Assembly: GCA_964611355.1 (NCBI GenBank)
Contig: CAZSYD010000002.1
Span: 10,409 to 74,408 of the forward strand
Source: an uncultured Ignavibacteriales bacterium
GTDB taxonomy: Bacteria > Zixibacteria > MSB-5A5 > GN15 > JAAZOE01
Length of the DNA: 64,000 nt
Direction of reading: 5' to 3'
Below are positions 43,060 through 64,000 of the stretch, piece by piece. A program made the position numbers and the translations under genes. Every line of letters starts with the position of its first letter. Positions within the stretch are counted from its first letter, which is position 1. The notes under the pieces were generated by a model. The model saw only the letters and a program-made list of their open reading frames with translations. It did no database searches and was not told where the DNA came from.

Positions 43060-43293
43060 GGTATACACTCCGAGGTTAAAGATCGATTCTTGTCGGTATA
43101 TATTATGTCTCAGGAAGTTTCTGTCAACCCCGGTATTAGCCAAAACGCAGTAGAACCGGAGTTTCCGCGAGGTAAATAGCATGTCTTTCGTATTGAGATT
43201 CACGAAAGCAGTCCCTGCAAATTGCCTTCTTGCCGATCAAGAGGGGAATAGTTTGCTGTTGCTCTCCGATTTTGGCTGACGTATATTTTTGAT

Positions 43294-45039: not shown

Positions 45040-45108
45040 TTGTATTTTTCATTATATATATGCCCGCTTTGCGGGAAAGATAACATTTTAATCGCGAAAG
45101 GAGTTGCC

Positions 45109-46161: not shown

Positions 46162-46197
46162 TGACCGGCGTACGATTTGGTTATGTAAGAGGAAGTA

Positions 46198-47511: not shown

Positions 47512-48619
47512 TGGATTTATCAAAGTCGCAGGGATGGCTGGAGTTGTGGTCGCAGTTTCCTGTGTGGCCGCCTTTGGTCAGATAATCTATGGTCAGCCGC
47601 CGTCGGGCAACGCAGGATTTGTTTACAGCCACTGGAGCATCAGCGACACTATTGAGGTCAATCAAATAATGGTCCCGATCAACGGCTTTATTCCTCTGCA
47701 GGACAACCTTGAACTGCGTTTTTCCGCCGCCAGCGCCTCGAATAAACTGGAATACGGCGGGGAAGACCTAGAGCTTTCAGGATTGGGTGACCTGCGTCTC
47801 CAAATGAATCAGTCTCTGGCCGATGACAGGTTTCTTTTAAGCCTCGGACTTAATTTGCCGACCGGCAAGAAAAAGCTGAGCTTTAATGAAGAATGGGTGG
47901 TGTTGAAGGTGCTCTCTTTGGACTACCTCGACTTTCCCGTGCGGCGTCTCGGCGAAGGTTTTGGTCTTAACATCATGGCCGGCGGAGCGGAAATGCTGGG
48001 GTCGATGCGTGTCGGCGGGGCGCTTATGTACCAATATAACGGTACCTATGAGCCTTATGAAACCGGTGATGAGTATAACCCCGGCAATCAGTTCAGCGTT
48101 ATTTCCGGCGTCGATCAGACGGGCGACGGGTATATGCTTACCGCCAATGCCGTCTATTCGGTTTACACTACCGATAAATTGGAAGACAGGAAAATATTTT
48201 GCCAGAGTCCCATGTTTAGTCTTCTCCTGGGTGGTATTTTCGATAACAAAACTTATCAGATCGGCGCCGATATCGGATTGCTGCTTCGGGGGCGTAATGC
48301 TCGCTATGACAGCACGCAAGCCAAAATAGAACAACTAAAAGCTTACGGAAATGAGTTTTTAATTGCCGGTCGGTTCTCATGGATACCGAATAAAAACTGG
48401 CGTATGACGCCTTCGGTGGAGTTAAGAATCATTGGTGAGAATGAGTATAAGCTTGAAGGCGCCAACGTCTTTGGCCTTGGAGGCGAAATCGTCAGGAATA
48501 TCGGCGAGGGCGTTGATATTGGTGTCGCCCTCAAGTACTTCACCGGCAGCTCCGACGGCGGCGATATCGACCTCAGCGGTTATCAACTGTCGGCCAGTCT
48601 TATGACTGCCTTTAAGTGA
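47498..48619 (+). CDS. Putative outer-membrane beta-barrel protein
   Basis: Signal peptide, alternating amphipathic beta-strands, LNLPTGK motif, terminal ...LMTAFK. Confidence 0.6.
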   Translation: MMLINGFIKVAGMAGVVVAVSCVAAFGQIIYGQPPSGNAGFVYSHWSISDTIEVNQIMVPINGFIPLQDNLELRFSAASASNKLEYGGEDLELSGLGDLRLQMNQSLADDRFLLSLGLNLPTGKKKLSFNEEWVVLKVLSLDYLDFPVRRLGEGFGLNIMAGGAEMLGSMRVGGALMYQYNGTYEPYETGDEYNPGNQFSVISGVDQTGDGYMLTANAVYSVYTTDKLEDRKIFCQSPMFSLLLGGIFDNKTYQIGADIGLLLRGRNARYDSTQAKIEQLKAYGNEFLIAGRFSWIPNKNWRMTPSVELRIIGENEYKLEGANVFGLGGEIVRNIGEGVDIGVALKYFTGSSDGGDIDLSGYQLSASLMTAFK

Positions 48620-48630
48620 GAGTGAATACT

Positions 48631-49506
48631 ATGCGAAATAAAACCCTGAATAAAACGTTAGCAATTGTATTTGGCGTCTTTGTTGCGGTCTGTTTGGCTG
48701 CCGGTTGTTCGGAGAAGATCGTCAGCATACAGGAAAAGGGCGTCGAAGTATCAATGTGCGCCAAATTGTCAACGCCTGCAATGGCGCAGTATATAGACCA
48801 TTTTCAGGTTATGGTCATGGCGCGGGATTTTATCCCGCCGATTATCGAGCCGCTTGAGTTCATTGACGGTTACCTGAGAGGCGAGGTTATTGTTCCCGCC
48901 GGCAGAGAAAGGATTTTTGTTGTCCAGGCTTTTGATAAAGAAGACAATATGCTCTATTCCGGAATAACCGTTGCCGACGTACTACCGGGTAAAACAGTGG
49001 AATTGTCGATCGACCTTTATCCGATCGCGCCCATGCTGTATATCACGCCGCATTATCAAAGAGTTGAAATGGATAGCTCTTTTACCGTCGGCATAATGAT
49101 AAACATGGTTCCAGAGCTCAGCAGCATTTCGTTCTATGTTTCCAGCAATGATGCACCGATCTATATTCAGTCAGTCACGGAGGGAACGGATATCGATACC
49201 GCCAATAGCCGGTTATCGGAGGAGCATGACGATTTATCGGCCTATGTAGATATTAGCTGGTATAATCAGCCGATTGGGAGTCTGACGGACGTGGCAGGCA
49301 ATGCTCATCTGGCAACCATTGATTTCGGATCTTATTATGATTGGGCTTACGATACCGCTACCGCTGTCCTGGATTTGCAAATCCATTCCATGATAAGCAC
49401 TGACGGCGATACTATCTACATTTCCGGCGGTATTATTTCAACCCAATCTGTATTTACAGATAGAGGTGTGATAGAATTGTTCTATGAGCCTGGCGGTGCC
49501 AAGTGA
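48631..49506 (+). CDS. Lipoprotein with Ig/cohesin-like domains
   Basis: Lipobox LAAGC; beta-rich; SSFTVGIMI...LATIDF cohesin-like segment. Confidence 0.55.
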   Translation: MRNKTLNKTLAIVFGVFVAVCLAAGCSEKIVSIQEKGVEVSMCAKLSTPAMAQYIDHFQVMVMARDFIPPIIEPLEFIDGYLRGEVIVPAGRERIFVVQAFDKEDNMLYSGITVADVLPGKTVELSIDLYPIAPMLYITPHYQRVEMDSSFTVGIMINMVPELSSISFYVSSNDAPIYIQSVTEGTDIDTANSRLSEEHDDLSAYVDISWYNQPIGSLTDVAGNAHLATIDFGSYYDWAYDTATAVLDLQIHSMISTDGDTIYISGGIISTQSVFTDRGVIELFYEPGGAK

Positions 49507-49597: not shown

Positions 49598-50128
49598 TTA
49601 TTCGCCTTCAAGAATAAGCGTCTCGGCCACCGTTGCGGTATAGATTTCGTTTGTTGCGATTTCCCCCTGGCCGCCTTTTATAAACAACCCGAAGATGAAA
49701 AGATAAGAAAGAGTCTTTTTGCTTTTGCCTTTGTTTTCCACGTCGCCGGTGAGCTTTATCTTTGATTCGTCAGGGGGCTGGTAACTGCCCTTTGTTTCCA
49801 ACTCAACGAATTCAACCTTGATATATCCCGGCTTGCCCGCCTTTTTGGCCTTTTCGGCTTCCGCAACTCGGGCGGTTCCCTGCGCTCCTTCTTCGACAAT
49901 CGTTTTGCTGCCGATCATGATCGGTTCGGCCAGCGTGATAAGCAGCGGAATATCTTTGGCCAGTTCGCCGGAAGATATTTTCATCCCGGGGGCGAATTTG
50001 ACTTTGACTTTTGTCCCTCGAGGAAGCTGAATGGTTGCGGCCTGGAGGGAAACGGCGCATACAAGAGATATCAAAACGAAGTATATTGCAATCCGAGTAA
50101 GATATTTTTCCGATATTTTAAGACTCAT
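49598..50128 (-). CDS. Exported VirB10/TrbI-like beta-domain protein, last gene of the T6SS operon
   Basis: Signal peptide (SLQA-A); LPRGTKVKV...ISSGE...ITLAEPIMIGSKTIVEEGAQGTARV...KKAGKPGYIKVEFVEL pattern; hydrophobic segment LSYLFIFGLFI; GGAG RBS. Confidence 0.5.
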   Translation of the reverse strand: MSLKISEKYLTRIAIYFVLISLVCAVSLQAATIQLPRGTKVKVKFAPGMKISSGELAKDIPLLITLAEPIMIGSKTIVEEGAQGTARVAEAEKAKKAGKPGYIKVEFVELETKGSYQPPDESKIKLTGDVENKGKSKKTLSYLFIFGLFIKGGQGEIATNEIYTATVAETLILEGE

Positions 50129-50163
50129 GGTTTGCTCCTTGTCTTTTTTATAAATCTCTGTCC

Positions 50164-52368
50164 CTATTCTTTCAACTTCGGAAGCTGATCCACAAGCGGA
50201 GGGATAAACCTGATGTTGACCTTTTTGCCGATATTATCGAATGATACGGTTCCATCCATATCAAAAAGAGAATACTTGCCCCGCAGAATTGTCTTGTCGC
50301 TCGATTCCCGGCCCCAAGTTTCCGCCTGCATGAGGGTATCAATGGCAATATGGATAATATCGCTGACTTTCCACTTAAGTTTATATTCGAAGCCGGCCAG
50401 TATCTGCGACTCTTCCTGCCAGCCGGGGTCTTTTCCTTTTTCGGCTACTTCAATGTGAAGATGGCCGTCGCTGGGGATACTTTCCACCTTGTAATTGAAC
50501 GTTTTCTTCTTGTCCCACTTTTTGGCCTGCGAAAGGTACTTGTCGATCATCTGAATGCTTTTCTTGTCGACGCCCGGATCGAGGCTTTTTCTGATTTTTT
50601 TCAGTTCCGCGACGGCATCGCCCAGACGGTAAGACGGGGAATCATTGCCGTTTATTTGATCGATCAGGTCGTCAAGCTCCACGGCGGCCTTTTTGGCCAC
50701 TTCCTTTTTAACCTTTTTGATTTTCCTTTCCGAGAGAGCGTCCCCCAGAAGAATTTCTTCCCTGGACAATGTCTGGCTGTAAAGGCTCTTGTCGGTGCGA
50801 ACCTGTTCCTGAATGGTTTTCCAGATGGTCGTATCGGAAGGGCTGGCGACCGCCCTGGTAAACATATCCCAGTAGGCCAGGGCGCGCCCGCTGCGCGTGA
50901 ATAAAATCGAGGTTTCGTCCCCCTTATGGTAATTATCAAGTGTGGCCACAAGCCTTTCGTGTTCGCTGGTGAGGATCACGGTGCTGTCACTCGGATTCAA
51001 CCTGGGCCAGAGAGTAATGTCTTTGACGATTGTCGCAAACCGGGCGATATGTTCGTTAAGGTATTTGATCGCTTCCCTCTCGTTATATCCCATATACCCT
51101 TCGCGAATTCGCTGGGCGGGTCCCTGAAAAGGCTCAAAAAACCATTTAACCGTGTAGGCGCGCTCATAGTTGCGATAAGCCCTGATAATCCTGCCGCGTT
51201 CCTTGTCGGAGGCGCTGTACATATTGCCGCCGTAAGCGGTAAGTATTTCGTTTTCGATTCTCTGCGGTTTGGGATAGAGGAGCTTGAAGTGGTATAAGTT
51301 GGGAAGTGAAAAAAGCACAATCCAAATCAGGCTGATAAGCGCGGCGTATTTGGCCACGGTTCTGAAGCGCGATATTCTTTTATTGCGACCGATGGCGTTG
51401 AGCAGCCAGTAAAACGGTTCCTTGACGCCGACCGGCTGTATTTTATCCGGCGGGACGTAGAGGGAACGGCCGACGTCGGTTCCTATTTTTTCCGGAGTTA
51501 CGCCGGTGGCGGAAACGAAGAAAATCTGCAGATCGAGCGTCCGGCCAAGAATCACCCGCAGGAAGTCCTTAAGCTTTACCAGAACATTTCTGACCGAGCC
51601 GGCCCAGGCGGAATCGGAAGCGATCAGATTACTTTCCAGAACCTTTTCGAGGAAGAATTCAAAATCTTCGGAGACGAGATATTCGTCTTCCGGTTTGATC
51701 AGGACAACGTCTTTGTCATCGGAAAAGCCGGGCAGAATATCGGCCTTGGTTATCACCAGTCCTATCGGAATCGGCAGGCGGGAATCAAGCGGGGCCAGCC
51801 GTTCGACCATGTTGACAAAAGAGGCCACGTGCGATTGGCTTTCCAGTTCGGCGCCCATGATCTTGGGATCGTAGAAGAAGAGCAGTCCGTCGCAGCCCGA
51901 CATAAAGTCGTCCACCTGGTCGGCCTGCTCGCTCTGTTCCGAGATCGAAACGGTTTTGCCGTTATAGTCATAAGAAACAACGGAGAACTTTCTTCTGCGA
52001 TCAACGATGGCATTGAAAAGAAGAAGTTTTCCGGTTACGGTCGGGTTGGGAAACTTCTTTTCCCCTCGAAGATCGACAACCGTCCCGGCATCAACGGCGG
52101 TTCCCAGTCCCCAAATGGCGCGGTAGTTCGACAGGAATTCGCCGGCGGTGGTATTGTCGATGACCGATATCTGGAGATTTTTGGAAATTTTGCATTCTTC
52201 GTTTAAGACGGTAAAATAAACCGTCTTGCCGGAGTTGGCATCGCCATATATACCGATGCGGATGCCTGACGGCCAGATGGTTTCAGGTGCAGCGCCTTTT
52301 TTCCCTTTTCGTTTGGCGGCTGCCTTGGAGCCTTTTTTGAATATCTTTATCAGCTTGCTTATTTTCAT
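50164..52368 (-). CDS. TRAFAC-like P-loop GTPase domain, single TM and large periplasmic domain (TssM-like topology)
   Basis: G1 GDANSGKT, G3 DYNG, G4 TKAD, G5 VSAT; TM YAALISLIWIVLFSL at about aa 340; about 370-aa C-terminal domain. Confidence 0.7.
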   Translation of the reverse strand: MKISKLIKIFKKGSKAAAKRKGKKGAAPETIWPSGIRIGIYGDANSGKTVYFTVLNEECKISKNLQISVIDNTTAGEFLSNYRAIWGLGTAVDAGTVVDLRGEKKFPNPTVTGKLLLFNAIVDRRRKFSVVSYDYNGKTVSISEQSEQADQVDDFMSGCDGLLFFYDPKIMGAELESQSHVASFVNMVERLAPLDSRLPIPIGLVITKADILPGFSDDKDVVLIKPEDEYLVSEDFEFFLEKVLESNLIASDSAWAGSVRNVLVKLKDFLRVILGRTLDLQIFFVSATGVTPEKIGTDVGRSLYVPPDKIQPVGVKEPFYWLLNAIGRNKRISRFRTVAKYAALISLIWIVLFSLPNLYHFKLLYPKPQRIENEILTAYGGNMYSASDKERGRIIRAYRNYERAYTVKWFFEPFQGPAQRIREGYMGYNEREAIKYLNEHIARFATIVKDITLWPRLNPSDSTVILTSEHERLVATLDNYHKGDETSILFTRSGRALAYWDMFTRAVASPSDTTIWKTIQEQVRTDKSLYSQTLSREEILLGDALSERKIKKVKKEVAKKAAVELDDLIDQINGNDSPSYRLGDAVAELKKIRKSLDPGVDKKSIQMIDKYLSQAKKWDKKKTFNYKVESIPSDGHLHIEVAEKGKDPGWQEESQILAGFEYKLKWKVSDIIHIAIDTLMQAETWGRESSDKTILRGKYSLFDMDGTVSFDNIGKKVNIRFIPPLVDQLPKLKE

Positions 52369-52382
52369 GATAATGCCGTCAT

Positions 52383-53306
52383 TTATCTGCCTGCGCCGCC
52401 TTGGACGGTTGTGGCCTTCTGCCTGAACTCATCCAGCTTATTATTCGAATAATCCGCCCATTTCAAGGGAACATATACGGCCAGAAAGATAAAAATCAAA
52501 ATTATCGCGCCGTAGAATATATAGGCTCCCGCACGCTGGGTCATAACCAGCCGGAAATAGCGGAAACTCTTGAAGGTTCCCTTAATCCGGCTCCATACGT
52601 CAACCAGCGAACTTTTGAGTTTTGCCCAGAAGCTGGTCTTGCGCAGGTAGTTCCACTGAGTCAGGTATTGGCGATGAAGCCTGTTTTTGACGCTAAGTTT
52701 ACGGAAGGCGTCCACACGGAGAAGGTGAAATTCAAGACTGCTCCTGTCGTCGGCAAGGTCTGTGCCAAGAATCATTCTGCGTCGAAGTAGTTCCAGAAAC
52801 TTGTACGGATCGCTTTTGGCGGCGAAATCCTCCGGAGTAATATCGTCCCGGATGCTTCTGCCGAATTTATTGTAATAGCGGGCGATTTCCTGTAATAGAA
52901 AAGCATTGAGCTGAAAGTTGTTGTTTAGGCTTCCTCCCTTGAAAAGCATCGGCAACAGATGAGTTTCAAAAAAGGGAATATCCTGTTTTACCGGCCGTAA
53001 GTCACGGCAATGGAGATAAGCCTTGTTGGATTGCCCGTCGATATCGGCTTCCGATTCAAAAAAGGTAATCAGTATCTGGATAACTACCTGACGGAAGTCC
53101 GACGAGGTTAACGGAGTTTTCTTGATCTTGTCCAGAAAAACCCGATCAACGTTTACAGCTTCATCACGCTGTCGCGACAGGGCTTTAAACATGGTATAAA
53201 GACCGCCATAAGTCTGCAGAAATGCCTCGGTATCAAACTCGGTGTATCTCGTTTCAAAAGTACCGAAATACCTGAAAAGGTCCTCTATATATGATCTTAT
53301 ATCCAT
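52383..53306 (-). CDS. Hypothetical helical protein with C-terminal TM anchor (TssL-like topology)
   Basis: About 255-aa soluble region, TM YIFYGAIILIFIFLAVYVPL and short tail; lies immediately after tssK. Confidence 0.6.
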   Translation of the reverse strand: MDIRSYIEDLFRYFGTFETRYTEFDTEAFLQTYGGLYTMFKALSRQRDEAVNVDRVFLDKIKKTPLTSSDFRQVVIQILITFFESEADIDGQSNKAYLHCRDLRPVKQDIPFFETHLLPMLFKGGSLNNNFQLNAFLLQEIARYYNKFGRSIRDDITPEDFAAKSDPYKFLELLRRRMILGTDLADDRSSLEFHLLRVDAFRKLSVKNRLHRQYLTQWNYLRKTSFWAKLKSSLVDVWSRIKGTFKSFRYFRLVMTQRAGAYIFYGAIILIFIFLAVYVPLKWADYSNNKLDEFRQKATTVQGGAGR

Positions 53307-53329
53307 TTTCTAAGTCAATCCCGGCTGCC

Positions 53330-54778
53330 TTAGATACTATAAATTATCAAATCCATCTTGCCCAGATTGGCGAATTTTTCGGGATCGTGAGCGCCCCGGA
53401 AAATAAGCGTTATCTGGTTTACCGACGAGCATTCCAGCATATCCCTCGGGTGCAGAGCCACCTTGTTTCCGAAGGCCGTGGTGTCGACGTCGATGGGATC
53501 GGTTTCGCCAAGTCCGCGGGCTTCGTTTAATCCCAGACGCACCTGCATGTTCCGCCATTCGGCGTCGTCAAAAAGATTCTTGGACATCAGGGTTACAAGG
53601 TCTGATATCGGTCGCGGCTTGGATATTTTAATCATGAGATAACAGAGTTCACCCACCCGTTCCAACCGGCTGGCGGCATAAGTCAGGTGGCGATAAGTGC
53701 GGCCGGCGTAGGTCATCGTCTCGGTGGCCACGGCCTGCTCGCCGAGTTCTTCCCGTTTGGTGCGGGCCAGGAAAGTCATGATGCCTTGCAACTTTTCGAG
53801 AATGTCATCGATCATGCGGACTTGTCCGCCCAAATCCTGATGGTTGTACTCGGACAGAACGAAGCCGTCAACTTCAGAGAGAAATTGACCTATATCGGCG
53901 CCAAGTTCTTTGGTAAAGAACTTTTCGTTCAAATAGTCTTTCAGGCCGGGATGGAGGTTAAACAGGGATGAGACCACTCTAAATAGTCTCTTGAAGTAGA
54001 TCACCAGCCTGACGGGGTGCCCGGCATTCGATCCGACTACGAATTCATCGAGAGTGGAGGCCAGATGATAAACCAGGAGATGAACAGTTTCCCTGAACGC
54101 CACCTGCAGGCTGGTGCCGGCTCCGGCCAGGCCGCCTGAAACTGAAATCGCCATAAAGGCGCGTGTCGAAAGCGACAGCGTATTTTCCAGCCGATTCCTG
54201 AATTCGAATGCCTTTTCCGAGAGCCTTTCATCCGCATTAATCGACAGGCATGGCGGAAAGTACCCGGGGGAGATGCTTACCTCGCTGCCGCTGATGGTTA
54301 GCTCGGCTATCTGAATATAGCCCCCCTCCGGCATATTCGGCCGCTTGCCGAGATGCACCGAATAGCTGTTCGTAAGATACGGCGTCCGGGGCAGGTCTTC
54401 GCTCGGATCCGGATCGCCCACCTGTTTTTTGGCGGCCGGATCAACGGCAATGAAAACCGGCACAGTTGTCTCGCTGACTTCCATCTCGCCTCGGATGATA
54501 TCACTGCCTGATCCGTTTATCTCGATATAGCTGCCGTCGGGAGTAAGCGCCTGGCACCTGACCACCTCGACCCGCAGACGGCTGCTGGTAACTGACAGGT
54601 TCATACTTAGAGCCGGTTTGCCGGAGAGCGATTTTCTAACCAGCCCATAACGGTCACCGGCCGTAAAGGTATGCCAGCGTGCCAGAGATTCGAAGTACTT
54701 TTCCTGGTCTTGGAGATGCTGCCTGGTGATCAGCATCCCATCCTGCCAGTTTATGGAATATAACTGCAAGTCACTCAT
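53330..54778 (-). CDS. tssK: T6SS baseplate subunit TssK-like
   Basis: N-terminal INWQDGMLITRQHLQDQE motif typical of TssK; YFPPCL; operon context. Confidence 0.75.
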   Translation of the reverse strand: MSDLQLYSINWQDGMLITRQHLQDQEKYFESLARWHTFTAGDRYGLVRKSLSGKPALSMNLSVTSSRLRVEVVRCQALTPDGSYIEINGSGSDIIRGEMEVSETTVPVFIAVDPAAKKQVGDPDPSEDLPRTPYLTNSYSVHLGKRPNMPEGGYIQIAELTISGSEVSISPGYFPPCLSINADERLSEKAFEFRNRLENTLSLSTRAFMAISVSGGLAGAGTSLQVAFRETVHLLVYHLASTLDEFVVGSNAGHPVRLVIYFKRLFRVVSSLFNLHPGLKDYLNEKFFTKELGADIGQFLSEVDGFVLSEYNHQDLGGQVRMIDDILEKLQGIMTFLARTKREELGEQAVATETMTYAGRTYRHLTYAASRLERVGELCYLMIKISKPRPISDLVTLMSKNLFDDAEWRNMQVRLGLNEARGLGETDPIDVDTTAFGNKVALHPRDMLECSSVNQITLIFRGAHDPEKFANLGKMDLIIYSI

Positions 54779-54802
54779 TGTCTTGCCTCAAAAAGTATAA
54801 AG

Positions 54803-54831
54803 AAGTTATATACGTTCATCTTTAATGTCAA
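54803..54831 (-). promoter_or_regulatory. Internal sigma70-type promoter upstream of tssK
   Basis: Minus strand TTGACA-N17-TAACTT in an AT-rich 105-nt gap. Confidence 0.55.
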
Positions 54832-54883
54832 GATCAATAAAATCTTTGTTTTCAGGTTGTTTGCTATCTTTGCTCCATCGTCT

Positions 54884-55786
54884 CTAAACGCGGGTCGAAT
54901 AGCCGAGTCGGGCTCGATCCCCCAGATGCATTGTCCCTGCGTCGGTTTCGAATGTAATCCGGTAGTCCAGGTTACTCGGCATGCAGATATTCAGTACCCA
55001 CTCCACTTTTTTGCGTTTCTTCCCTCCCGGCAGGAATTCGGCGATTTCGCCGGGGGCAATGCCACTTACGATAATGCGGTACGCCGAATCATATTCAATA
55101 AAAGTTTTGCCCAGGACTGTTTCTTTACCAAGCCGGCCGGTTTTCGAACCCAGTCTATATCTTATCTCCTCCGGGATTTCAAAGTCAGACCTGATATTTT
55201 CGATTATCCTGAAGCGATACCCGAACATCCTGCTCATAATCTCAGCCGCTTTATCGGGATTCCCGGCCCACCGGTGAAAGTCAGGCAGGATGGTTGCCCA
55301 GAGAAGCGCCGCCTTGTGGTCGGAGGCGTTTTCGATTCCAAAATCGAACAGGTCGAGGAAACGTGATAACTGTTCCTTATCCGGAACGGAGAAGTTGAAT
55401 TTGAGCGTTTGGCGTCGGGCAAACGCCTCGTATTTGATTTCAGGGTTATCGAAAGGAGCCATTAGTCGGCGGGCTCGATCTTCCCACGCCGACCCCACCG
55501 ATCGGCGGCCTTCAAGCCCGTAGAAGAACTGGTACGGCAGTTTGTCCGTGGCTCCGGAACAGCCGATTTCAAGGACGATGCGGGTGTTTCGTGAAAGCGG
55601 AGTTCCCGGCGGCGGTTCCTGTTTCAGGATTTCGCCTTTGTAGTTTTCGAATTTACCGACAGGCAGCAGATCTACCTGATTGAGATCAACCCCTGTCTTA
55701 ATCAAAAGATTCAATCCGGTGGCGAAGTGGAGTTGATTCCGTCGATTGCAGAGGTCGGGCATCCGTAACTGGCCGTCGGAAATCAT
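54884..55786 (-). CDS. tssG: T6SS baseplate subunit TssG (subtype iii-like)
   Basis: GATDKLPYQFFY resembles the GxYDxLPExLFH motif; LGKETVLG; C-terminal LGYSTRV; overlaps the tssF stop (ATGA). Confidence 0.72.
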   Translation of the reverse strand: MISDGQLRMPDLCNRRNQLHFATGLNLLIKTGVDLNQVDLLPVGKFENYKGEILKQEPPPGTPLSRNTRIVLEIGCSGATDKLPYQFFYGLEGRRSVGSAWEDRARRLMAPFDNPEIKYEAFARRQTLKFNFSVPDKEQLSRFLDLFDFGIENASDHKAALLWATILPDFHRWAGNPDKAAEIMSRMFGYRFRIIENIRSDFEIPEEIRYRLGSKTGRLGKETVLGKTFIEYDSAYRIIVSGIAPGEIAEFLPGGKKRKKVEWVLNICMPSNLDYRITFETDAGTMHLGDRARLGYSTRV

Positions 55787-57447
55787 TGGTTGACAATCTC
55801 CACTTTATAGTGCGTGTTGACCTGGGAGCGGGACTTAAGAAAACTGCCCAGCCTTGCTTGCAAAAGCTTTATCTCATCGTCTGAGTAGAAATCATTATTC
55901 TTTATGGTCGTCCGGACGATAATGCAACGCCTGACGCCCCCGGAAAAACGTTCGACGCCGTTTTTACATTCGGCTTGCTTTATTCGAGGGTCGAAGGTTA
56001 ACGCCCAGCGGGATATCTCGGTGAAACTCAATGCCCGGTCGCGATTGCGGAGCCGTGCGGAAACTTCGGTCATGATCTGTTCGTCGGTTTTGGCCGGAAT
56101 GGCGCCAGCGGTTGGGATGATACTGACGGCTGATGATATCCCGGGATGGCTTTCGTACAATTCATTTATTTTGCCCGCTTCGATTCCATTGCCGTCGGTA
56201 CCTGCGGTAATAGAATAATTGATCGTTAATGAATCGGGCGGCAGTTCCAGATGCGAAGAGAAGTCAAACCAGAGAACCAGCTTGTTGTCTCTTTCCTCGA
56301 ACGAATAATATCGACCGGAAAGGTCCTGAACGGCCAGGTGAGTGGGGATATAATCACGGCCGCTTGAATCAACCACGCTGGTGACCTCCAGAACCCCGTT
56401 GATATCCTCCGGCAGCTCCACGTCTACCAACTGATTACCGCCGGTATGCTTAAAGAGAGTGAGATCGTTTTTATTGACCGCGACGAAGCAGTTGAAATAA
56501 ATCCCAAAGGGTGATTGAAGCCTCGATTTATCGCCGCCGGTAGGAAGATCCAGACGAATCCAGTAGAAGTGGCCGGTGTCCGAGGGAAATTCGATTCCAT
56601 TGGCGGCCAGTTGATCGGCCAGCTTTTCCTCGATCGGTCCCATTTCACAGGTGGATGCAAACTCCCTGGGAATGACCACGAAATTATCATTCAACGGGCG
56701 AAACAGGTCGGCTCCGGATCGCAGGCCGCCCCATTCGAGGACATTTCCGTCAACGGAAAAGATATCATCAAGAGAGGTGGTCAGACCCGGGCAGAAACCG
56801 CTGTCTTCGTAAAAACTCCCATAATGGGAACCGGGATACCACCTTGCCCAGCGCAGTTGCCTTAAGACGTCCGGAATTCCCGTTATGAAAAGCGTTGCGT
56901 CGATAAAATCAGTCGCCGAACCGGTATGATCGACGGCTATATATACCTGATACGAACTGCCGGCAGCGAAGGTTGCCCGTTGTTGTGAAGTCGAGTGAAG
57001 TTCCTCCTCCGGAACCGGTGACAGATCTATAATCTTATCGTCGGTTTTCAGGAAGATATGTTTGACCTGCGCCGCTATGAGTTTTTCCTTTTTAAGGGCG
57101 GAGAAAAAGAAAGTCTGACCGCCTTCGCGGGACTCTTTGTAAAAGAACTTGGTGTGCGGATCGACCTCCACCACCGGATCGACCGGTTCGCAGCGCATAA
57201 CGGTAAAGGCGGGCACCGGCCAGCGCATGCTTTCCGGGCATAACGAGCGAATCAGGGAAGCGGTGACAATTTCCCAGACATTGTCGATGCGCCGGTCAAT
57301 TCTTTCCAACTGATGAGCGTAAAGCTGCATCAGGATTCTGAGGATCGGATCGAGCCGGTCGGGCGAAGCCGGGACTTCCGGATTCCAAGCGCGCAACTCC
57401 CGGTGCATATCGGCAAAGATTTTTTCTCTTGATCGGGATTTTTCCAC
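55783..57447 (-). CDS. tssF: T6SS baseplate subunit TssF (subtype iii-like)
   Basis: LDPILRILMQLYAHQL...LCPESMRWPVPAFTV; NCFVAVN; LRNRDRALS. Confidence 0.8.
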   Translation of the reverse strand: MEKSRSREKIFADMHRELRAWNPEVPASPDRLDPILRILMQLYAHQLERIDRRIDNVWEIVTASLIRSLCPESMRWPVPAFTVMRCEPVDPVVEVDPHTKFFYKESREGGQTFFFSALKKEKLIAAQVKHIFLKTDDKIIDLSPVPEEELHSTSQQRATFAAGSSYQVYIAVDHTGSATDFIDATLFITGIPDVLRQLRWARWYPGSHYGSFYEDSGFCPGLTTSLDDIFSVDGNVLEWGGLRSGADLFRPLNDNFVVIPREFASTCEMGPIEEKLADQLAANGIEFPSDTGHFYWIRLDLPTGGDKSRLQSPFGIYFNCFVAVNKNDLTLFKHTGGNQLVDVELPEDINGVLEVTSVVDSSGRDYIPTHLAVQDLSGRYYSFEERDNKLVLWFDFSSHLELPPDSLTINYSITAGTDGNGIEAGKINELYESHPGISSAVSIIPTAGAIPAKTDEQIMTEVSARLRNRDRALSFTEISRWALTFDPRIKQAECKNGVERFSGGVRRCIIVRTTIKNNDFYSDDEIKLLQARLGSFLKSRSQVNTHYKVEIVNQ

Positions 57448-57478
57448 AATGGTCTATCCTGTCCGGTTCCTCAGATTA

Positions 57479-57859
57479 TCAACCCAGATGATAGGTAGCC
57501 TCAAATAATTCTTCCCTGTCTCCATCGTGGTAATTTCCGGATACCTTGATGGCTATGCCCAGGGCATGGGAGGAGACGCCGTCCAGACTTAGAAAAGATA
57601 CGGATACGTTGTAGATCCTCTTTTCATATTTGTTGATGGCGTTTCTCAGGGTGGATCTGACATCGGCCTTGTTGACCGTGTAAAGGTCAGAAAACTCCTT
57701 TTCCCAGATGGCGCATCCGTACTCGGGCTCAAACGGCATAATGCCCGGGCGGGAACTCAATATCAGACCGACCGAATATGTCAGCGATTCGTGCAGATTG
57801 GCCTTGTCGAGGTAACCATCCTTCAGTACTAACGGTAGCGCCAGATAATCCATAGGCAA
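57479..57859 (-). CDS. tssE: T6SS baseplate wedge TssE (gp25 family)
   Basis: YLALPL...ILSSRPG...FEPEYGCAIWE...AINKYEKRI gp25 signature. Confidence 0.85.
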   Translation of the reverse strand: MPMDYLALPLVLKDGYLDKANLHESLTYSVGLILSSRPGIMPFEPEYGCAIWEKEFSDLYTVNKADVRSTLRNAINKYEKRIYNVSVSFLSLDGVSSHALGIAIKVSGNYHDGDREELFEATYHLG

Positions 57860-57861
57860 GG

Positions 57862-59634
57862 CTAATTCAGTTGAATCGGGTTACCCGATACGGTAACCGT
57901 GGCTCCCTTGATATCGCACTTGGCGGAAGCCTTTGTCTCCAGGTTGGCTCCGGCCTCCGTCTGGAGATTGGTCCCGGATTTTATCTTGAACTCCTGCTGG
58001 CTTTCAAGGCTGATATTATTACCCTTGATGCTGATATCGCCTTCGCTTTCGATGCTGATAGTCGGACCGGCGGCATCCAGAACAATCCGGCTTTTATCGT
58101 CCTTAGTGATGATGCTGATTTGTTCCCCGCCGTCAGTATCGTTGAGAATAATTTTGTTGCCGCTTCGGGTCAAAAACATCTTGACGCTGTTTTTATCGTC
58201 GGCGGTATCGGCGTGCGGGGCGTTTTCCTTGTTGTACAGCGCCCCCAGGGCCACCGGCAGATCGGGACAACCCTGCTCGTATCCCACCAGAACCTCATCG
58301 CCTATTTCAGGGAGGCAAAACCATCCCCGATCCTGCCCGGCGTGGGGCGTCATCATTCGCACCCAGGGGGTTTCGTCCGACTCGTTCCAGGGGAACTGGA
58401 CCTTAATTCTCCCCAGACTTTCGGGGTCGTTGTTGTCGAGAACAACCGCCGTCTGGAGATTAGTCAGTTCTCCCCGGGCGGACCGGCTCTGGGGATAAGC
58501 GATATCCAGCGGGGTGCAGGTGAAGCTGTTATGATATGTTCCCGATTCATCAAAAGTATGCTTGACGGAACCAACCCAATAGACGCCGTTAAACTTGCCC
58601 ATCTTGCTGATTTTAACGCAATGACCGGCGGCAACGGCGGGAACGGTGGAATGACCGGTACAGGTAATCATTCGTCCCAGAGCCCGGCCTTTGTCTCTCT
58701 GAAGAATCTTATCCAGCGACTGGGCGTCGGCGACCGCTTTTGGCGAGGTGGAAAACCCGGATTTGGTAAAGACCTCTTTTGATGCGTCCTGCGATATTTT
58801 CGACAGCTTGGAAAGCGAGGCCTCCGGCGGCAGCGATTCGGTATCCTGGGAGTAAGTCTTTTTCTGTTCGTAGTTGTACGCCTGTGCGGAGAACTCGCTT
58901 GATTCCGTACCCCAGCCTATGGTAAATGAGCCCAGCGTTTCACGCCAGATGAGCTCTTCGACATCCGCTGCGCTTGCCTTTACCACTCGGAATTCTTTGC
59001 CGTCATACAGGGCAAAAAGCCCGCTTCCGCTGGCCAGACGGGCGATGAAATCAAAATCGGTTTCCCGATACTGAACGCAGAATTTCAGGCTGCCAGAGGC
59101 GGAGTCGATGGTTCCCAGCGTGATCGGGTATTGCCTGAGGATAGACCCGATGATATCGGTGGCGCTTTGGTCGTGGTAAAAAGCGTTATGCCTGGCCCCA
59201 TCCATGGCGATGGTGGGACTATGGGCCGTGATGGTGGCGACATTCAAAGCGTCAATACTGTTTTCCAGGTCAACCTTGGTGACCACGCCGATAAACTCCG
59301 ACTGGCGGGAAGCGTCAACCGTTTCGCCCTCCGGCGTTATGGTAAGCGAAAGCGATTTTCCCAGAAACGAGGTATAGGGAACCGACTCGGAAAAATCTCT
59401 TTCGGCGGCCGCCTGACCGATTTCGCGAAGGGTGATTTTTAAGACATGGTGGTCATCAATCGACTGATGGAGTTCAAGTTTCGAGATATCGTACTTGATC
59501 TCCCTGCCTTCGATGACCAGGGCGCAAACAGCGGGTATTCCGATCCGCTGCGACACTTTATCCAGTTTATCCTTCGCCCCTTCGGCTTTGATGGATCGAC
59601 CGCCCTTTGGTTTTTCACTACGCATAAGCTTCAT
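57862..59634 (-). CDS. vgrG: T6SS spike VgrG without C-terminal effector extension
   Basis: VQYRETDFDFIARLA; NNDPESLGRIKVQFPW; PEIGDEVLVGY; TRSGNKI; beta-spike repeats to the end. Confidence 0.92.
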   Translation of the reverse strand: MKLMRSEKPKGGRSIKAEGAKDKLDKVSQRIGIPAVCALVIEGREIKYDISKLELHQSIDDHHVLKITLREIGQAAAERDFSESVPYTSFLGKSLSLTITPEGETVDASRQSEFIGVVTKVDLENSIDALNVATITAHSPTIAMDGARHNAFYHDQSATDIIGSILRQYPITLGTIDSASGSLKFCVQYRETDFDFIARLASGSGLFALYDGKEFRVVKASAADVEELIWRETLGSFTIGWGTESSEFSAQAYNYEQKKTYSQDTESLPPEASLSKLSKISQDASKEVFTKSGFSTSPKAVADAQSLDKILQRDKGRALGRMITCTGHSTVPAVAAGHCVKISKMGKFNGVYWVGSVKHTFDESGTYHNSFTCTPLDIAYPQSRSARGELTNLQTAVVLDNNDPESLGRIKVQFPWNESDETPWVRMMTPHAGQDRGWFCLPEIGDEVLVGYEQGCPDLPVALGALYNKENAPHADTADDKNSVKMFLTRSGNKIILNDTDGGEQISIITKDDKSRIVLDAAGPTISIESEGDISIKGNNISLESQQEFKIKSGTNLQTEAGANLETKASAKCDIKGATVTVSGNPIQLN

Positions 59635-59651
59635 AAAGATGCATTAAACAA

Positions 59652-59680
59652 TCTGCCGGGCAGTTGCCCTGCCCGGCAGA
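59652..59680 (-). terminator. Strong stem-loop between tssD and vgrG (leaky terminator or mRNA stabiliser)
   Basis: TCTGCCGGGCAG-TTGCC-CTGCCCGGCAGA perfect 12-bp stem; only a weak U tract on the minus strand. Confidence 0.65.
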
Positions 59681-59694
59681 AATCAAACGCCTCT

Positions 59695-60099
59695 CTATTC
59701 CTCCCAGCGGTTGTCTATTTCGGCGTCAGCGATCATCAGTCGGTGGCAGGAAATCTCGAAGTATTCACAAACCTGGTCGTCTGCTTTCTCTTTAACGTGC
59801 GGGATGGTCTCCGTATACTTCGTGACAAAACCTTCCTCCCACTTGAGCTCTTTCATAGTGGCGTCGTCCGGGTTTTTAAACATAACCGAGCCGGATTTGA
59901 AGTTGGTTTTGCTGGAATCCATAGCCCAGCGAGCGATATCGACGTTTTCGTCGGATTCTCTCGTGATTTTAATCAAACCGGCGTGAGCCCGATCTGTGGG
60001 ACGACCGGTTTCGTCGTTGGCGGTGTACAACTCATAAGAAACAGCATAAACATTTTTGTAGGCTACGCCATCGACTTCAAGAATTGGTCTCCTGGCCAT
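59695..60099 (-). CDS. tssD: T6SS tube protein TssD/Hcp, Bacteroidota (subtype iii) family
   Basis: DETGRPT...GLIKIT...WAMDS...SGSVMFKN...KELKWEEGFVTKYTE pattern of PF17642-type TssD; AAGGAG RBS. Confidence 0.88.
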   Translation of the reverse strand: MARRPILEVDGVAYKNVYAVSYELYTANDETGRPTDRAHAGLIKITRESDENVDIARWAMDSSKTNFKSGSVMFKNPDDATMKELKWEEGFVTKYTETIPHVKEKADDQVCEYFEISCHRLMIADAEIDNRWEE

Positions 60100-60139
60100 G
60101 ATTGGCTCTCCTTAAGTAAAATGGTTTATATGGACTGAT

Positions 60140-61570
60140 TTACTTATCCTTAACATTAGTCTGATTGTCGTCATTCCAGGCGGTAAACTCGATATTGAAC
60201 GTCCGCGCCGGATATTTCGGATTCAGACTGACCTTGATATCGATTTCCTGCCGCTTGCGCATCTCTTCGTCGGCAAAAATATCGACCTTGTAGTCCTGCA
60301 GGATATTGTCGCCGCCGGAGATCGCTTTCATGAACTTGTCGATATCGCGGCGCATGGCGTCGACGAACTTCTGGTCGATTACCGTAAAGGTCTGCTTGTT
60401 GAGATAATTTCGCAGCGTCTTGTAAACGTAATCGTAAGTGCGGCGAATGGAATAAACGTTGAACGTCTCTTTGCTGAACAGCGTCGCCGCGCCCATCGCC
60501 ACCGCCGTGCCTTCGAAATTTACCAGCGGATTGACGCCTTTTTCGTTGATCTTGCTGGCATCCGGCTGATTGGCCTTAAAGCGAAGATATTTCGCGTCGG
60601 CAATCTTGCCGAACTTGAAACCTGCCATCGGCTGCTGCATGCCGACGGTGATATCGCCCTGATACATTTTGCCCGCTACTGCCGCCGAGGGAGGAATCCA
60701 CATATCTTCATCCTCGTACTGGTTGGCGTTGCGTGCCAGAAGGTAGTTTGAAAACAGCGAAACGTATTGCTTGTGATTATCGATACCGGCCAGGCTGGCA
60801 AAGCTGGGATCATCCAGCATATCCATAACTTCTTCGACCGATTCAAAGTCGGGAAGATCGGTCATGACATGCACCTTGTTGGGCAGGCCCAACAGCCGGG
60901 CGAAACTGTCGATATTCTCGACGCTGCCGAGATAACCCGGAACAACCGCCATCGAGAAACAGTCTTTGATACTCCATTCACGGTACAGATCGGCGATAGC
61001 CTTGGACAGTTGCTCGAACTTCTCTTTGTCGTCGGGATCGGCCAGTTCTTCGGCGCTGGCATTGACGAAATAGGCATTCACTTTTTCGTCCGGCTCCTGC
61101 TGTGCATTGGCAAAGAACTTATCAATGGCCCGGTATGTGGTTTCCATTTCGCGACTGGCCCGGTGAACCTTCTTCATGTTTTTCTCAAGGTTGGCTTCCA
61201 GTTTGGTCGCTTCCTCGGTCAGACCCTTGCGAATTCCATCGACGTTTTCGCTTTTGGCCAGGAATTCAATCCAGGCTTTGAGCCGTTGCGACAGCAGTTT
61301 GCGCTGGGCCGCAAAATCCTTCTTGGTAAGAAACTCCTTGCGCTGGAAGCTTTTTTTCGGGTCGAGCCATTCCACGCCGCGGACAAGGTCGCCGTCGGCA
61401 GATTTGAACGACGGCATCAACGCGGACAGCTTCTTGAAATCGCCGAACGATTCGCCCAGGATGGATGCAAATTCCTCGTCCGATATTTTTTCAACCACCG
61501 CCTCCTCTTTTGCTGAGGCTTCGGCGGCTTCTTCTTTTTGCGGCTGTAATTCCTTTTCCTCTTCGCCCAT
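60140..61570 (-). CDS. tssC: T6SS contractile sheath large subunit TssC (DUF5458 / subtype iii)
   Basis: LETTYR-like METTYRAIDKFF, VVPGYLGS, WIPPSAAVAGKMY, GFKFG; follows tssB. Confidence 0.85.
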   Translation of the reverse strand: MGEEEKELQPQKEEAAEASAKEEAVVEKISDEEFASILGESFGDFKKLSALMPSFKSADGDLVRGVEWLDPKKSFQRKEFLTKKDFAAQRKLLSQRLKAWIEFLAKSENVDGIRKGLTEEATKLEANLEKNMKKVHRASREMETTYRAIDKFFANAQQEPDEKVNAYFVNASAEELADPDDKEKFEQLSKAIADLYREWSIKDCFSMAVVPGYLGSVENIDSFARLLGLPNKVHVMTDLPDFESVEEVMDMLDDPSFASLAGIDNHKQYVSLFSNYLLARNANQYEDEDMWIPPSAAVAGKMYQGDITVGMQQPMAGFKFGKIADAKYLRFKANQPDASKINEKGVNPLVNFEGTAVAMGAATLFSKETFNVYSIRRTYDYVYKTLRNYLNKQTFTVIDQKFVDAMRRDIDKFMKAISGGDNILQDYKVDIFADEEMRKRQEIDIKVSLNPKYPARTFNIEFTAWNDDNQTNVKDK

Positions 61571-61586
61571 TTATATCACCTCTTTT

Positions 61587-62033
61587 CTATTCTTCTTCGC
61601 CGAGAAGATCAATGTAGTACCTGGCAAGCTTCAGCAGGGCTTCCTTCTTCTCTTTATCAGCCAGAGTCTTTTTCAGGGGGTTGTTTTTCTTGAGTTGCTT
61701 CTCCAGATCGTTGAGAATCTCCTTGCCGTAGTATATCTTCTGTAGATGGTCGTTTTTCTCGACCAGTTCCTTGCTGCTGAAATCTTTCATCGCCCTGATT
61801 TCGAATTCGCCATTAACCTGTTCGCCTTCGGTCGATTCCATCTCGACCGAAAACGAGGGTCGAAACTTCTCGAATACCTCCTTCATGTTGGTGCATTTGA
61901 CCGGCGTAACGTCCGCCTCCTCATCGCTGTTCAGCCTTGCGGCATATAGAATCTTGTTGGAGGGGAGCAGTTCCACCGGGATGGAGTCGTCGCGTTTGAT
62001 TTTTTCCGTGGCACCAAGAATAAACTTCGCCAT
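61587..62033 (-). CDS. tssB: T6SS contractile sheath small subunit TssB (subtype iii)
   Basis: LPSNKIL...EVFEKFRPS...EGEQV...MKDFS...QLKKN pattern of Bacteroidota TssB; GGAGG RBS. Confidence 0.85.
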   Translation of the reverse strand: MAKFILGATEKIKRDDSIPVELLPSNKILYAARLNSDEEADVTPVKCTNMKEVFEKFRPSFSVEMESTEGEQVNGEFEIRAMKDFSSKELVEKNDHLQKIYYGKEILNDLEKQLKKNNPLKKTLADKEKKEALLKLARYYIDLLGEEE

Positions 62034-62055
62034 CTATATCCTCCGGTTATTGAGA

Positions 62056-63153
62056 TTAATTACTTGCCTGTTTGGTGAAAACATAAGCGTCGTCTTTTAT
62101 GTCTATCAATAAATTATCGCCAGGAGATACCTCTCCTGTGATAATATCGACCGAAAGTCTATTTATAATATCCCTTTCGATGGTCCGCTGAATTGGCCGG
62201 GCGCCCAGCTCGATCGTGTAACCGTCCCGAGCCAGTTTTTTTCCGGCTTCAGGACTCAGAGTAGCCTTGATGTTTTGGTCTTTAAGCAATACGGACAATT
62301 GCTCGAATTCGAGGCGGGTAATTTTTTCCACCTGCTCTTGGGTGAATGAGTGATATATGATGATATCATTCAGGCGGTTTAGGAATTCGGGGCGGAATTT
62401 GGAAAAGAGAAAACCTCGAACCTCTTCCATGTCAATTTCCCGGCCCTCGCGATCGGCATCCAGAATCTTGTCGGCGGCATAGTTGGAAGTGAGTACCACT
62501 AAGGAGTTGGAAAAATCGACCGTGCGGCCTTGGCCGTCGGTCAAACGCCCGTCGTCAAGAAGTTGCAGCATGATATTGAAAACATCCGGGTGGGCTTTTT
62601 CCACCTCGTCGAAGAGGACGACCGAAAACGGCTTGCGGCGCACGGCTTCGGTGAGGAGGCCGCCTTCCTCGTACCCGACGTATCCCGGCGGAGCGCCGAT
62701 CATTTTGGCCACCGAATGCGATTCCATGTATTCCGACATATCCAGCCGCACCATGGCATTTTTGTCGTCAAAAAGGAATTCCGCCAGAAGCTTGGGCAGG
62801 TAAGTCTTGCCCGTTCCGGTGGGGCCTAAAAACAGGAACGATCCGACTGGCCGGTGGGCCGGTTTCAGCCCCGCACGGGCTTTGCGAATGGCGTTGGCAA
62901 TTGCCTTGATAGCCTTGTCCTGGCCGATGATCTTGGCTGAAAGAAAAGACTCCATGTTGATCAGCCGGTCTTTTTCGGCGGTCAGCATTTTGGCGACCGG
63001 TATGCCGGTACGGCGGGCGACCACGGCGCCTATATCGGCATCGTCGATCTTGTGTTCCAGGGTATCAACGACTGATTTCAGTTCATTGAAGCGATTGATC
63101 TTTTCTTTGAATTCCCGTTTGAGATCATTGAGGTTTATCGTCTTGTCATTCAT
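62056..63153 (-). CDS. tssH: ClpV/TssH C-terminal half (end of middle domain plus AAA D2)
   Basis: RTGIPV, IIGQDKA, GPTGTGKT, RLDMSEY, LFDEVEKAH, RPEFLNRL; own GGAGG RBS; ATGA overlap with the upstream half. Confidence 0.88.
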   Translation of the reverse strand: MNDKTINLNDLKREFKEKINRFNELKSVVDTLEHKIDDADIGAVVARRTGIPVAKMLTAEKDRLINMESFLSAKIIGQDKAIKAIANAIRKARAGLKPAHRPVGSFLFLGPTGTGKTYLPKLLAEFLFDDKNAMVRLDMSEYMESHSVAKMIGAPPGYVGYEEGGLLTEAVRRKPFSVVLFDEVEKAHPDVFNIMLQLLDDGRLTDGQGRTVDFSNSLVVLTSNYAADKILDADREGREIDMEEVRGFLFSKFRPEFLNRLNDIIIYHSFTQEQVEKITRLEFEQLSVLLKDQNIKATLSPEAGKKLARDGYTIELGARPIQRTIERDIINRLSVDIITGEVSPGDNLLIDIKDDAYVFTKQASN

Positions 63154-63998
63154 GCCGTTTTTCCTCCGGTAGCCTCAAGGCGATAACCCCAGTACCCCTG
63201 CAGTATATCCAGATGGCGCGAAAATTCATCATAGGCGGTTTGCAGTTGTTGGAAATCCTGATGCTCTTTTTCAGGGTCTTTTCCCCGGCACGCTTTAACC
63301 AGTTCCTCGACGTGCGAAATCTGTTTTTCCAGTTCGGGAATAAGGCTTTTGGCAAATTCTTCCTTGACGCCGAATTCCGACCCGGCTTCATCGATTATAT
63401 CCAGAGCCACGTCGGGGAGGTTTCTTTCGCTGAGATACCTCTGGGCGAATTTGACAGAGCCGGTCAGGGCTTCCGGCGTATAGGTGATCTTGTGATGCTC
63501 TTCGTATTTGGCGATGACGCCTTTGACAATGCGGACGGCGTTTTCATAGTTGGGTTCTTCGACCTTGATTTTTTCGAACCGCCTTTCCAGCGCCTTGTCT
63601 TTTTCGAGATGCTTGGTGTATTCTTCTTCGGTGGTGGCGCCCATCAGGCGAACCTGGCCCCGCGCCAGCGGCGGCTTCAACAGGTTGGCGGCGTCATTTC
63701 CGCCGGCGGAGCCGACAATCGTGTGAACTTCGTCTACGAACAGGATAATCTTTCCCGCTGATTTGATGACTTCGCTGATGAGGCTTTTAAATCTTTCTTC
63801 GAATTCGCCTTTATATTTGGCCCCGGCCACCATTGCGCCCATATCCACTTCCATAACCTTAACGTCCAGGAGCGCTTTGGGTACCTGGCCGTCCACGACC
63901 GCCTGCGCGAATCCTTCCACAATGGCGGTTTTGCCGACGCCGGGCCCGCCCAGCAAAACCGGGCTGTTTTTCCGACGGCGCAGAAGAATCTGAATCGC
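63150..63998 (-). CDS. tssH: ClpV/TssH N-terminal half (AAA D1), 5'-truncated by the window edge
   Basis: [57 protein letters not shown]; frame open to the window end; stops at TGA 63152-63150. Confidence 0.88.
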
Positions 63999-64000
63999 CT

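Follow-up and report, generated by a model that had tools for sequence, protein, structure and literature searches.

Organization of the split clpV/tssH locus

The DNA examined here is a stretch of 64,000 nucleotides (the window; positions 10,409 to 74,408 of contig CAZSYD010000002.1, assembly GCA_964611355.1) from an organism deposited as an uncultured Ignavibacteriales bacterium and placed by GTDB in the Zixibacteria, lineage GN15. At the far end of the window lies clpV/tssH, the gene for the Hsp100 ATPase of a type VI secretion system (T6SS), and it is divided into two separate genes, the upstream one encoding the first AAA+ module (D1) and the downstream one the second (D2). All coordinates given below are those of the window, and the features lie on the minus strand unless the plus strand is stated. 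The 3' part of the D1 gene occupies positions 63150–64000; its frame is open from 63998, runs past the end of the window and closes with a TGA at 63150–63152. The full-length D1 protein (P0271) has 483 amino acids, as read from a 3.9-kb contig of the Joint Genome Institute (JGI) that is identical to the window (L001). The D2 gene (62056–63153) encodes 365 amino acids. Its ATG (63153–63151) begins one base upstream of the D1 stop codon, and the two genes share a stop/start overlap of 4 nucleotides, ATGA, at 63150–63153.

Reading the minus strand and translating it in three frames gives the junction as ...GCT ACC GGA GGA AAA ACG GCA TGA. It contains a Shine-Dalgarno (SD) sequence, GGAGG (63163–63167), located 9 nucleotides 5' of the D2 ATG and with a predicted anti-SD duplex energy of -9.5 kcal/mol, and a run of five adenines (A5, 63162–63158) separates this element from the ATG. 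An initial annotation of the window had described this same junction sequence, SD element and overlap, and all three were reproduced from the minus strand. The frame of D2 is interrupted by a stop 7 codons 5' of the ATG and contains no start codon ahead of the ATG, which makes the peptide beginning MNDKTINL the sole possible N-terminus of D2. The C-terminal tail of D1, LEATGGKTA (63153–63179), is variable and rich in Gly, Ala and Glu, and its codons double as the ribosome-binding site of D2.

Domains and position of the break

Pfam domains found in D1 are Clp_N (PF02861), AAA and AAA_lid_9, with Clp_N lying outside the window and seen in the full-length protein of L001, while those of D2 are AAA_2 and ClpB_D2-small. 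Both AAA+ modules have intact catalytic motifs, including the pore-loop tyrosines, the arginine fingers and sensor-2. In D1 these are Walker A GGPGVGKT (63927–63950), the pore loop KYKGEFE (63798–63818), Walker B ILFVDEVH (63723–63746) and the arginine fingers LARGQVR (63648–63668). Their counterparts in D2 are Walker A GPTGTGKT (62803–62826), the pore loop GYVGY (62671–62685), Walker B VVLFDEVE (within VVLFDEVEKA, 62593–62622), the arginine finger GRTVDF (62512–62529) and sensor-2 GARPIQR (62185–62205). The statement that both modules keep their Walker A and B motifs was therefore correct. Among the class-I Hsp100/Clp features tested, the only one absent is the single polypeptide, as the AAA+ modules lie on two open reading frames (ORFs).

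The middle domain (M-domain) is divided between the two chains. Helices 1 and 2 belong to the D1 chain (63180–63356) and end in a conserved YWG(H/Y)R motif (63180–63194), while helix 3 forms the N-terminus of the D2 chain (INLNDLKREF...DTLEH, 63052–63138). Next in the D2 chain is the segment IDDADIGAVVARRTGIPVAKM (62986–63048), which matches the strand and helix of ClpB that return into the small domain of D1 (D1-small). In the ClpB structure 1QVR the middle-domain linker is inserted in D1-small, and a strand and helix lead back from the M-domain. Helix 3 of D2 aligns with the motif-2 helices of ClpB from about Escherichia coli Tyr503 on. A phmmer search against PDB sequences paired D2 residue 28 with E. 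coli ClpB residue 523 and D2 residue 35 with Thermus thermophilus ClpB residue 520, and the D2 N-terminus maps about 7 residues ahead of the Tyr503 equivalent, in M-domain motif 2. In a multiple alignment the split lies 9–10 residues past the YWG(H/Y)R motif, at a site where the T6SS-linked clade is without about 24 residues that are found in motif 2 of ClpB. The three-helix M-domain is present and correspondingly about 24 amino acids shorter than that of ClpB. The YWG(H/Y)R motif that closes helix 2 is common to all T6SS-linked orthologues, split and fused, and its Trp is invariant even among ClpBs (W474 in alignment sequence A1).

The fold around the break can be viewed in an AlphaFold2 model of a fused orthologue (P0391), which has a mean predicted local distance difference test (pLDDT) score of 83. 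Here the M-domain helices span residues 402–443, 451–477 (with WGHR at the end) and 494–516, the pLDDT falls to its local minimum in a 16-residue coil (478–493), and the second nucleotide-binding domain (NBD2) is preceded by a short strand and a helix (524–535). According to this model, the Zixibacteria break is in the middle of a predicted flexible coil between M-domain helices 2 and 3. Because the break falls inside the coil, the D1 chain comprises the N-domain, the first nucleotide-binding domain (NBD1), most of D1-small and M-helices 1 and 2, and the D2 chain comprises M-helix 3, the return segment of D1-small, NBD2 and D2-small. The phmmer mapping, the alignment and the model all bear out the earlier placement of the break in the coiled-coil middle domain. 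A Foldseek search against the PDB returned a ClpB/ClpC/Hsp104-like fold and nothing more specific.

Conservation of the split

Four independent assemblies of the organism, two from JGI and two from Logan and made by two pipelines, encode an identical D2 protein with the 4-nucleotide overlap. Logan contigs from four salt-marsh runs carry the junction region without substitutions or indels, a comparison made at the contig level, where minority variants are not visible. In a collection of 5.8 billion proteins, the 120 best-matching relatives of D2 range without exception from 340 to 376 amino acids in length (77–96% identity), and the 120 best-matching relatives of D1, again without exception, from 480 to 520 (67–100% identity); where these are named, they belong to Zixibacteria, GN15 or the 'FCB group'. 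When D2 was instead searched against representatives at 50% identity, the whole split clade was collapsed into one fragmentary representative, and the other hits were ClpB/ClpC proteins of about 50% identity that differed in length and were often fragmentary, so that this search says nothing on independent splits.

From GTDB species representatives (Zixibacteria/GN15) we extracted 24 two-gene loci, that of the window's organism included. Their D1 proteins have about 482–490 amino acids where the start is resolved and their D2 proteins 362–367, and the two genes are strictly adjacent in every one of the 24. In the sole species pair with unsaturated synonymous sites, the ratio of nonsynonymous to synonymous substitution rates (dN/dS) is 0.047 for D1 and 0.045 for D2; the remaining pairs have dN values of 0.12–0.36 and saturated dS. 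Since the ratio is about 0.045 in each, both halves are maintained by purifying selection that is strong and acts equally on the two. The split is a genuine natural two-gene state that is conserved across Zixibacteria, an uncultured phylum. The initial annotation had proposed a natural split rather than a random indel, and the unchanged junction in the four assemblies and in the contigs of the four runs agrees with this. The question it raised, whether orthologues in related genomes share the split, is answered in the affirmative by the 24 species-level loci and by the half-length best relatives of each half. The case that would have spoken against it, namely that all close orthologues are fused, does not apply: the closest orthologues are all split, though some orthologues are fused.

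Junctions and translational coupling

The exact arrangement of the stop and start codons differs among the 24 loci. The ATGA overlap is found in 18, including the window's organism, and TAATG in three. The remaining three loci each have an arrangement of their own: TAG-cc-ATG with a 2-nucleotide spacer (L006), ATG-ag-TAA with an 8-nucleotide overlap (L009), and an in-frame TAA-atc-ATG in Zixibacteria JTS-AC108 (L085, positions 5440–5460). At this last junction, stop readthrough would yield a fused chain. The nucleotides around the junction and the residues of the D1 tail vary by species, and conservation does not extend to the A5 run.

An element of the GGAG, GGAGG or GGGGG type is nonetheless located 6–12 nucleotides 5' of the D2 ATG in 24/24 loci. 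All of the junctions reach a predicted anti-SD duplex energy of -6.3 kcal/mol or lower, compared with 16% of background coding 18-mers, placing the arrangement far beyond chance; at -8 kcal/mol or lower the figures are 58% of loci versus 3.5% of the background. The mean energy is -8.7 kcal/mol at the split junctions, versus a weaker -6.0 in the equivalent stretch of the fused orthologues. Because stop-start proximity and the SD element are constant while the exact geometry varies, we read the junction as the signature of a translationally coupled gene pair. As had been argued initially from the window's own junction, this points to translational coupling rather than a random indel, with overlap and SD element conserved as a feature.

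Fused orthologues and the history of the split

Fused orthologues are single ORFs of 839–854 amino acids in the same tssH-tssB-tssC-hcp-vgrG context. They occur in Krumholzibacteriota (L088, L091–L093) and otherwise in a few Zixibacteria-like metagenome-assembled genomes (MAGs), at L086, L087, L089, L018 and L017/L090, and the database holds about 32 fused protein clusters (P0391–P0422) with 63–100% identity to L090. Identity between fused and split proteins is 63–78%, and the region of the junction, YWGHR included, is collinear in the two, with an equal number of residues and no indels. They differ in that the loop of the fused proteins at the split position is without the Gly/Ala/Glu-rich, SD-encoding tail that is carried by the split D1. 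Beyond these, the nearest relatives are only about 40% identical and are ordinary ClpBs of other phyla, with no T6SS genes beside them. To our knowledge all other Hsp100s are fused, and since this includes the ClpBs at about 40% identity, the fission is taken to be derived and the fused state ancestral.

The phylogeny was built by neighbour-joining (NJ) with bootstrap only. It gives the T6SS-linked clade 100% support, while its base is unresolved, with 1–21% support for monophyly of the split forms and 0–2.5% for a clean split-versus-fused bipartition. The fused L090 (854 amino acids, JBDRES010000012.1) groups with the split loci L014 and L137, with bootstrap values of 72% for ClpV, 80% for TssB, TssC and Hcp combined and 88% for all four proteins. 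These trees make two or more changes of state probable, such as an early fission followed by re-fusion, or repeated fission at the same loop.

Six of the GTDB representative MAGs (L007, L011, L018, L103, L138 and L139) are titled uncultured Ignavibacteriales or Ignavibacteriaceae, and their T6SS loci cluster tightly with those of Zixibacteria. These titles are probably unreliable as taxonomic labels.

Genomic context and assignment as ClpV

The D1-D2 pair heads a complete T6SS operon (49598–64000). Directly downstream lies tssB (61587–62033), followed by tssC (PF17541; 60140–61570), hcp/tssD (PF17642; 59695–60099) and vgrG (57862–59634). After vgrG come tssE (gp25), tssF-like, tssG and tssK-like genes, and at the end of the operon are ORFs without a Pfam hit (52383–53306, 50164–52368 and 49598–50128). 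The order tssH-tssB-tssC-hcp-vgrG is kept in all of the orthologous loci, split and fused. Judged by Pfam (PF17541 for TssC, PF17642 for TssD) the system is Bacteroidota-like, yet it resides in a Zixibacteria genome.

Against the TssH model TIGR03345, which has a cut-off of 884.95 bits, D1 scores 384, D2 scores 311 and a fused orthologue 707, all of them below it. The fused orthologue also falls below the cut-off of the ClpB model TIGR03346, with 870 of the 1232.1 bits. The pair is ClpV by context, and neither TssH nor ClpB by curated hidden Markov model.

Next to the distal end of the T6SS operon is a block of genes on the plus strand (43294–49506) that begins with a Ser/Thr protein kinase (43294–45039) and continues with CsgG-like, TPR lipoprotein-like and weakly cohesin-like ORFs; it may be a regulatory or envelope module for the T6SS. 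Further along are two convergent ORFs of 1096 amino acids each (36487–39777, plus strand, and 39913–43203), which are tricorn-protease-like and probably paralogues, with PD40 beta-propellers, Tricorn_C1, PDZ and Peptidase_S41 domains.

Proposed mechanism and alternative explanations

We consider it likely that the locus represents a maintained fission of the T6SS Hsp100 ATPase, a ClpV/TssH-like protein, and that its two chains pair non-covalently into a ClpV-like double ring. Both chains would be translated from one mRNA, and ribosomes that end D1 would re-initiate on D2 at the overlap, giving the chains in a ratio of roughly 1:1. M-helix 3 of the D2 chain would pack non-covalently on M-helices 1 and 2 of the D1 chain, and D2 residues about 36–56, which form the strand and helix, would complete D1-small. 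The rebuilt D1:D2 protomer would be the equivalent of the fused protein save for one open loop. Six such pairs could form the usual double-ring hexamer, which would bind the contracted TssB/TssC sheath via Clp_N and thread the sheath for recycling. Several points weigh against this picture. No RNA runs holding the locus were found. NBD2-only single-ring relatives (Skd3/human CLPB) act alone, so association of D1 with D2 is not logically required. The basal branches of the tree do not fix how many fission and fusion events took place or in which direction. The ClpV role itself rests on gene context, because the halves and the fused orthologue miss the TssH and ClpB cut-offs.

The association of the chains is the step that would be lost if D1 and D2 worked as two independent single-ring ATPases, with a D1-only ring docking on the sheath through its N-domain and a separate Skd3/CLPB-like D2 ring unfolding it or doing some other job, and with no stable protomer formed. 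Active NBD2-only Hsp100 relatives do exist, Skd3 chains are among the PDB matches of D2, and the isolated NBD1-M fragment of T. thermophilus ClpB is an active ATPase (PMC4239642). We nevertheless regard independent rings as unlikely, as the cut divides both D1-small and the M-domain bundle between the chains, which is hard to square with autonomous folding, and as strict adjacency with stop-start coupling in 24/24 loci and equal selection on both halves also argue against them. The existence of collinear fused orthologues, with the fused L090 nested among split forms, further suggests that the two states are functionally interchangeable.

The other alternatives concern the junction itself, where GGAGG stands immediately 5' of the A5 run and one extra A would join the D1 and D2 frames. 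This could be used by the cell, with full-length ClpV made by programmed recoding: a -1 frameshift at GGA-AAA-A with GGAGG as the stimulator, and readthrough in other loci, for which the in-frame junction of L085 (TAA-atc-ATG) would be suitable. It could also be an artefact or a lesion, that is, a homopolymer miscall in sequencing or assembly at the A5 run, 5 nucleotides ahead of the stop, or a recent inactivating frameshift that has left a pseudogene. A frameshift or a homopolymer error at GGA-AAA-A was considered and rejected, as the A-run is not kept among the loci and the frames at the junctions are not the same. Recoding is very improbable in our judgement: the A-run is missing from most orthologues, each locus has an ATG with a well-spaced SD element, and the stop-minus-start offsets (+1, -2, -5, -6 and +5) are such that no one mechanism could serve all of them. 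Because the frame relation of D1 and D2 varies in this way among the loci, a conserved frameshift or readthrough that restores one chain is ruled out. Error or pseudogene formation has practically no chance of being correct, given the same sequence in four assemblies from two pipelines and in four runs, a split shared by over 100 protein clusters and by 24 species whose junction sequences differ, and a dN/dS of about 0.045 for both halves.

A further and more speculative proposal is that the fission is a functional design rather than neutral, the first natural two-chain Hsp100, in which the M-domain hairpin serves as a reversible tether and the lineage toggles between fused and split forms at one loop. 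We hold this to be rather unlikely. Toggling is suggested by the nesting of the fused form among split ones. Were the tether reversible, the cell could control ring assembly, inter-ring coupling or D1:D2 stoichiometry independently of synthesis, and a functional design would offer a natural system in which to study communication between AAA+ tiers without a covalent link.

Comparison with known systems

The Hsp100 unfoldases (ClpA, ClpB, ClpC, ClpV and Hsp104) are textbook single-chain double-ring motors, and the coupling of their tiers and the contribution of the middle domain are active questions. In nearly all bacteria the member that recycles the T6SS sheath is one protein of about 850 residues. 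ClpV binds the N-terminal helix of TssC through its N-domain and disassembles the contracted sheath in an ATP-dependent manner. The canonical ClpV/TssH of T6SS-i (Vibrio cholerae, Pseudomonas aeruginosa; TIGR03345) shares with the Zixibacteria pair Clp_N, two AAA+ modules, a short middle domain and a position beside tssB/tssC, and by analogy the pair presumably has the same role in recycling contracted sheath. The canonical protein is one polypeptide of about 850–900 amino acids, whereas in Zixibacteria there are two genes and two chains. Unlike canonical ClpV, the pair resembles the ClpB models more closely than it does the TssH model, and its T6SS is Bacteroidota-like.

We found no published description of a split ClpV/TssH, a naturally split Hsp100, a ClpV in Zixibacteria or a fission of the ClpV gene, in a search whose coverage partly left out subscription papers, so that absence there is not proof. 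As far as the literature was searched, the two-chain ClpV is undescribed, while mechanistically it was anticipated by in-vitro work. A 2026 review (PMC13584744) describes T6SS-iii as confined to Bacteroidota and mentions no split ClpV/TssH; against this, a Bacteroidota-like T6SS is documented here in Zixibacteria and Krumholzibacteriota. There are also consequences for annotation. The halves are now labelled 'AAA family ATPase', 'ClpA' or 'ClpB' and score below the TssH cut-offs, and pipelines for T6SS detection may miss tssH in Zixibacteria or call the gene broken.

Two other Hsp100s resemble the pair in part. Francisella ClpB acts as the sheath unfoldase of T6SS-ii (PMC7182274) and, as in Zixibacteria, the Hsp100 that serves the T6SS is ClpB-like and not classically ClpV-like. 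The Francisella protein is a single-chain housekeeping disaggregase with a full M-domain, while the Zixibacteria pair is linked to the T6SS, with an M-domain that is shortened and split. Skd3/human CLPB has NBD2 and D2-small as a polypeptide of its own, as does D2. It carries ankyrin repeats and has no D1 partner, in contrast to the Zixibacteria D2, which has a cognate D1 directly upstream and carries pieces of the D1 fold.

The engineered split of T. thermophilus ClpB comes close to the natural arrangement, as it too places the AAA+ modules on separate chains (PDB 4LJ4 and 4FCV are isolated NBD2). According to the account of Beinker et al. (2005) given where it is cited in PMC4239642, NBD1-M and NBD2 that were made separately are active together, and the title cited there states that chaperone activity is kept without covalent linkage. 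In the laboratory construct the protein was divided near residue 520, past the end of the middle domain. The Zixibacteria cut is some 30 residues closer to the N-terminus, within the middle domain and ahead of its last helix, and because M-helix 3 and the return segment of D1-small stay on D2, the natural D2 could carry a built-in tether. The loop at about Tyr503 of E. coli ClpB can be regarded as a tolerated breakpoint, and the phylum-wide split would mean that nature can do without a covalent link between the tiers, at least in what appears to be the recycler of the T6SS sheath.

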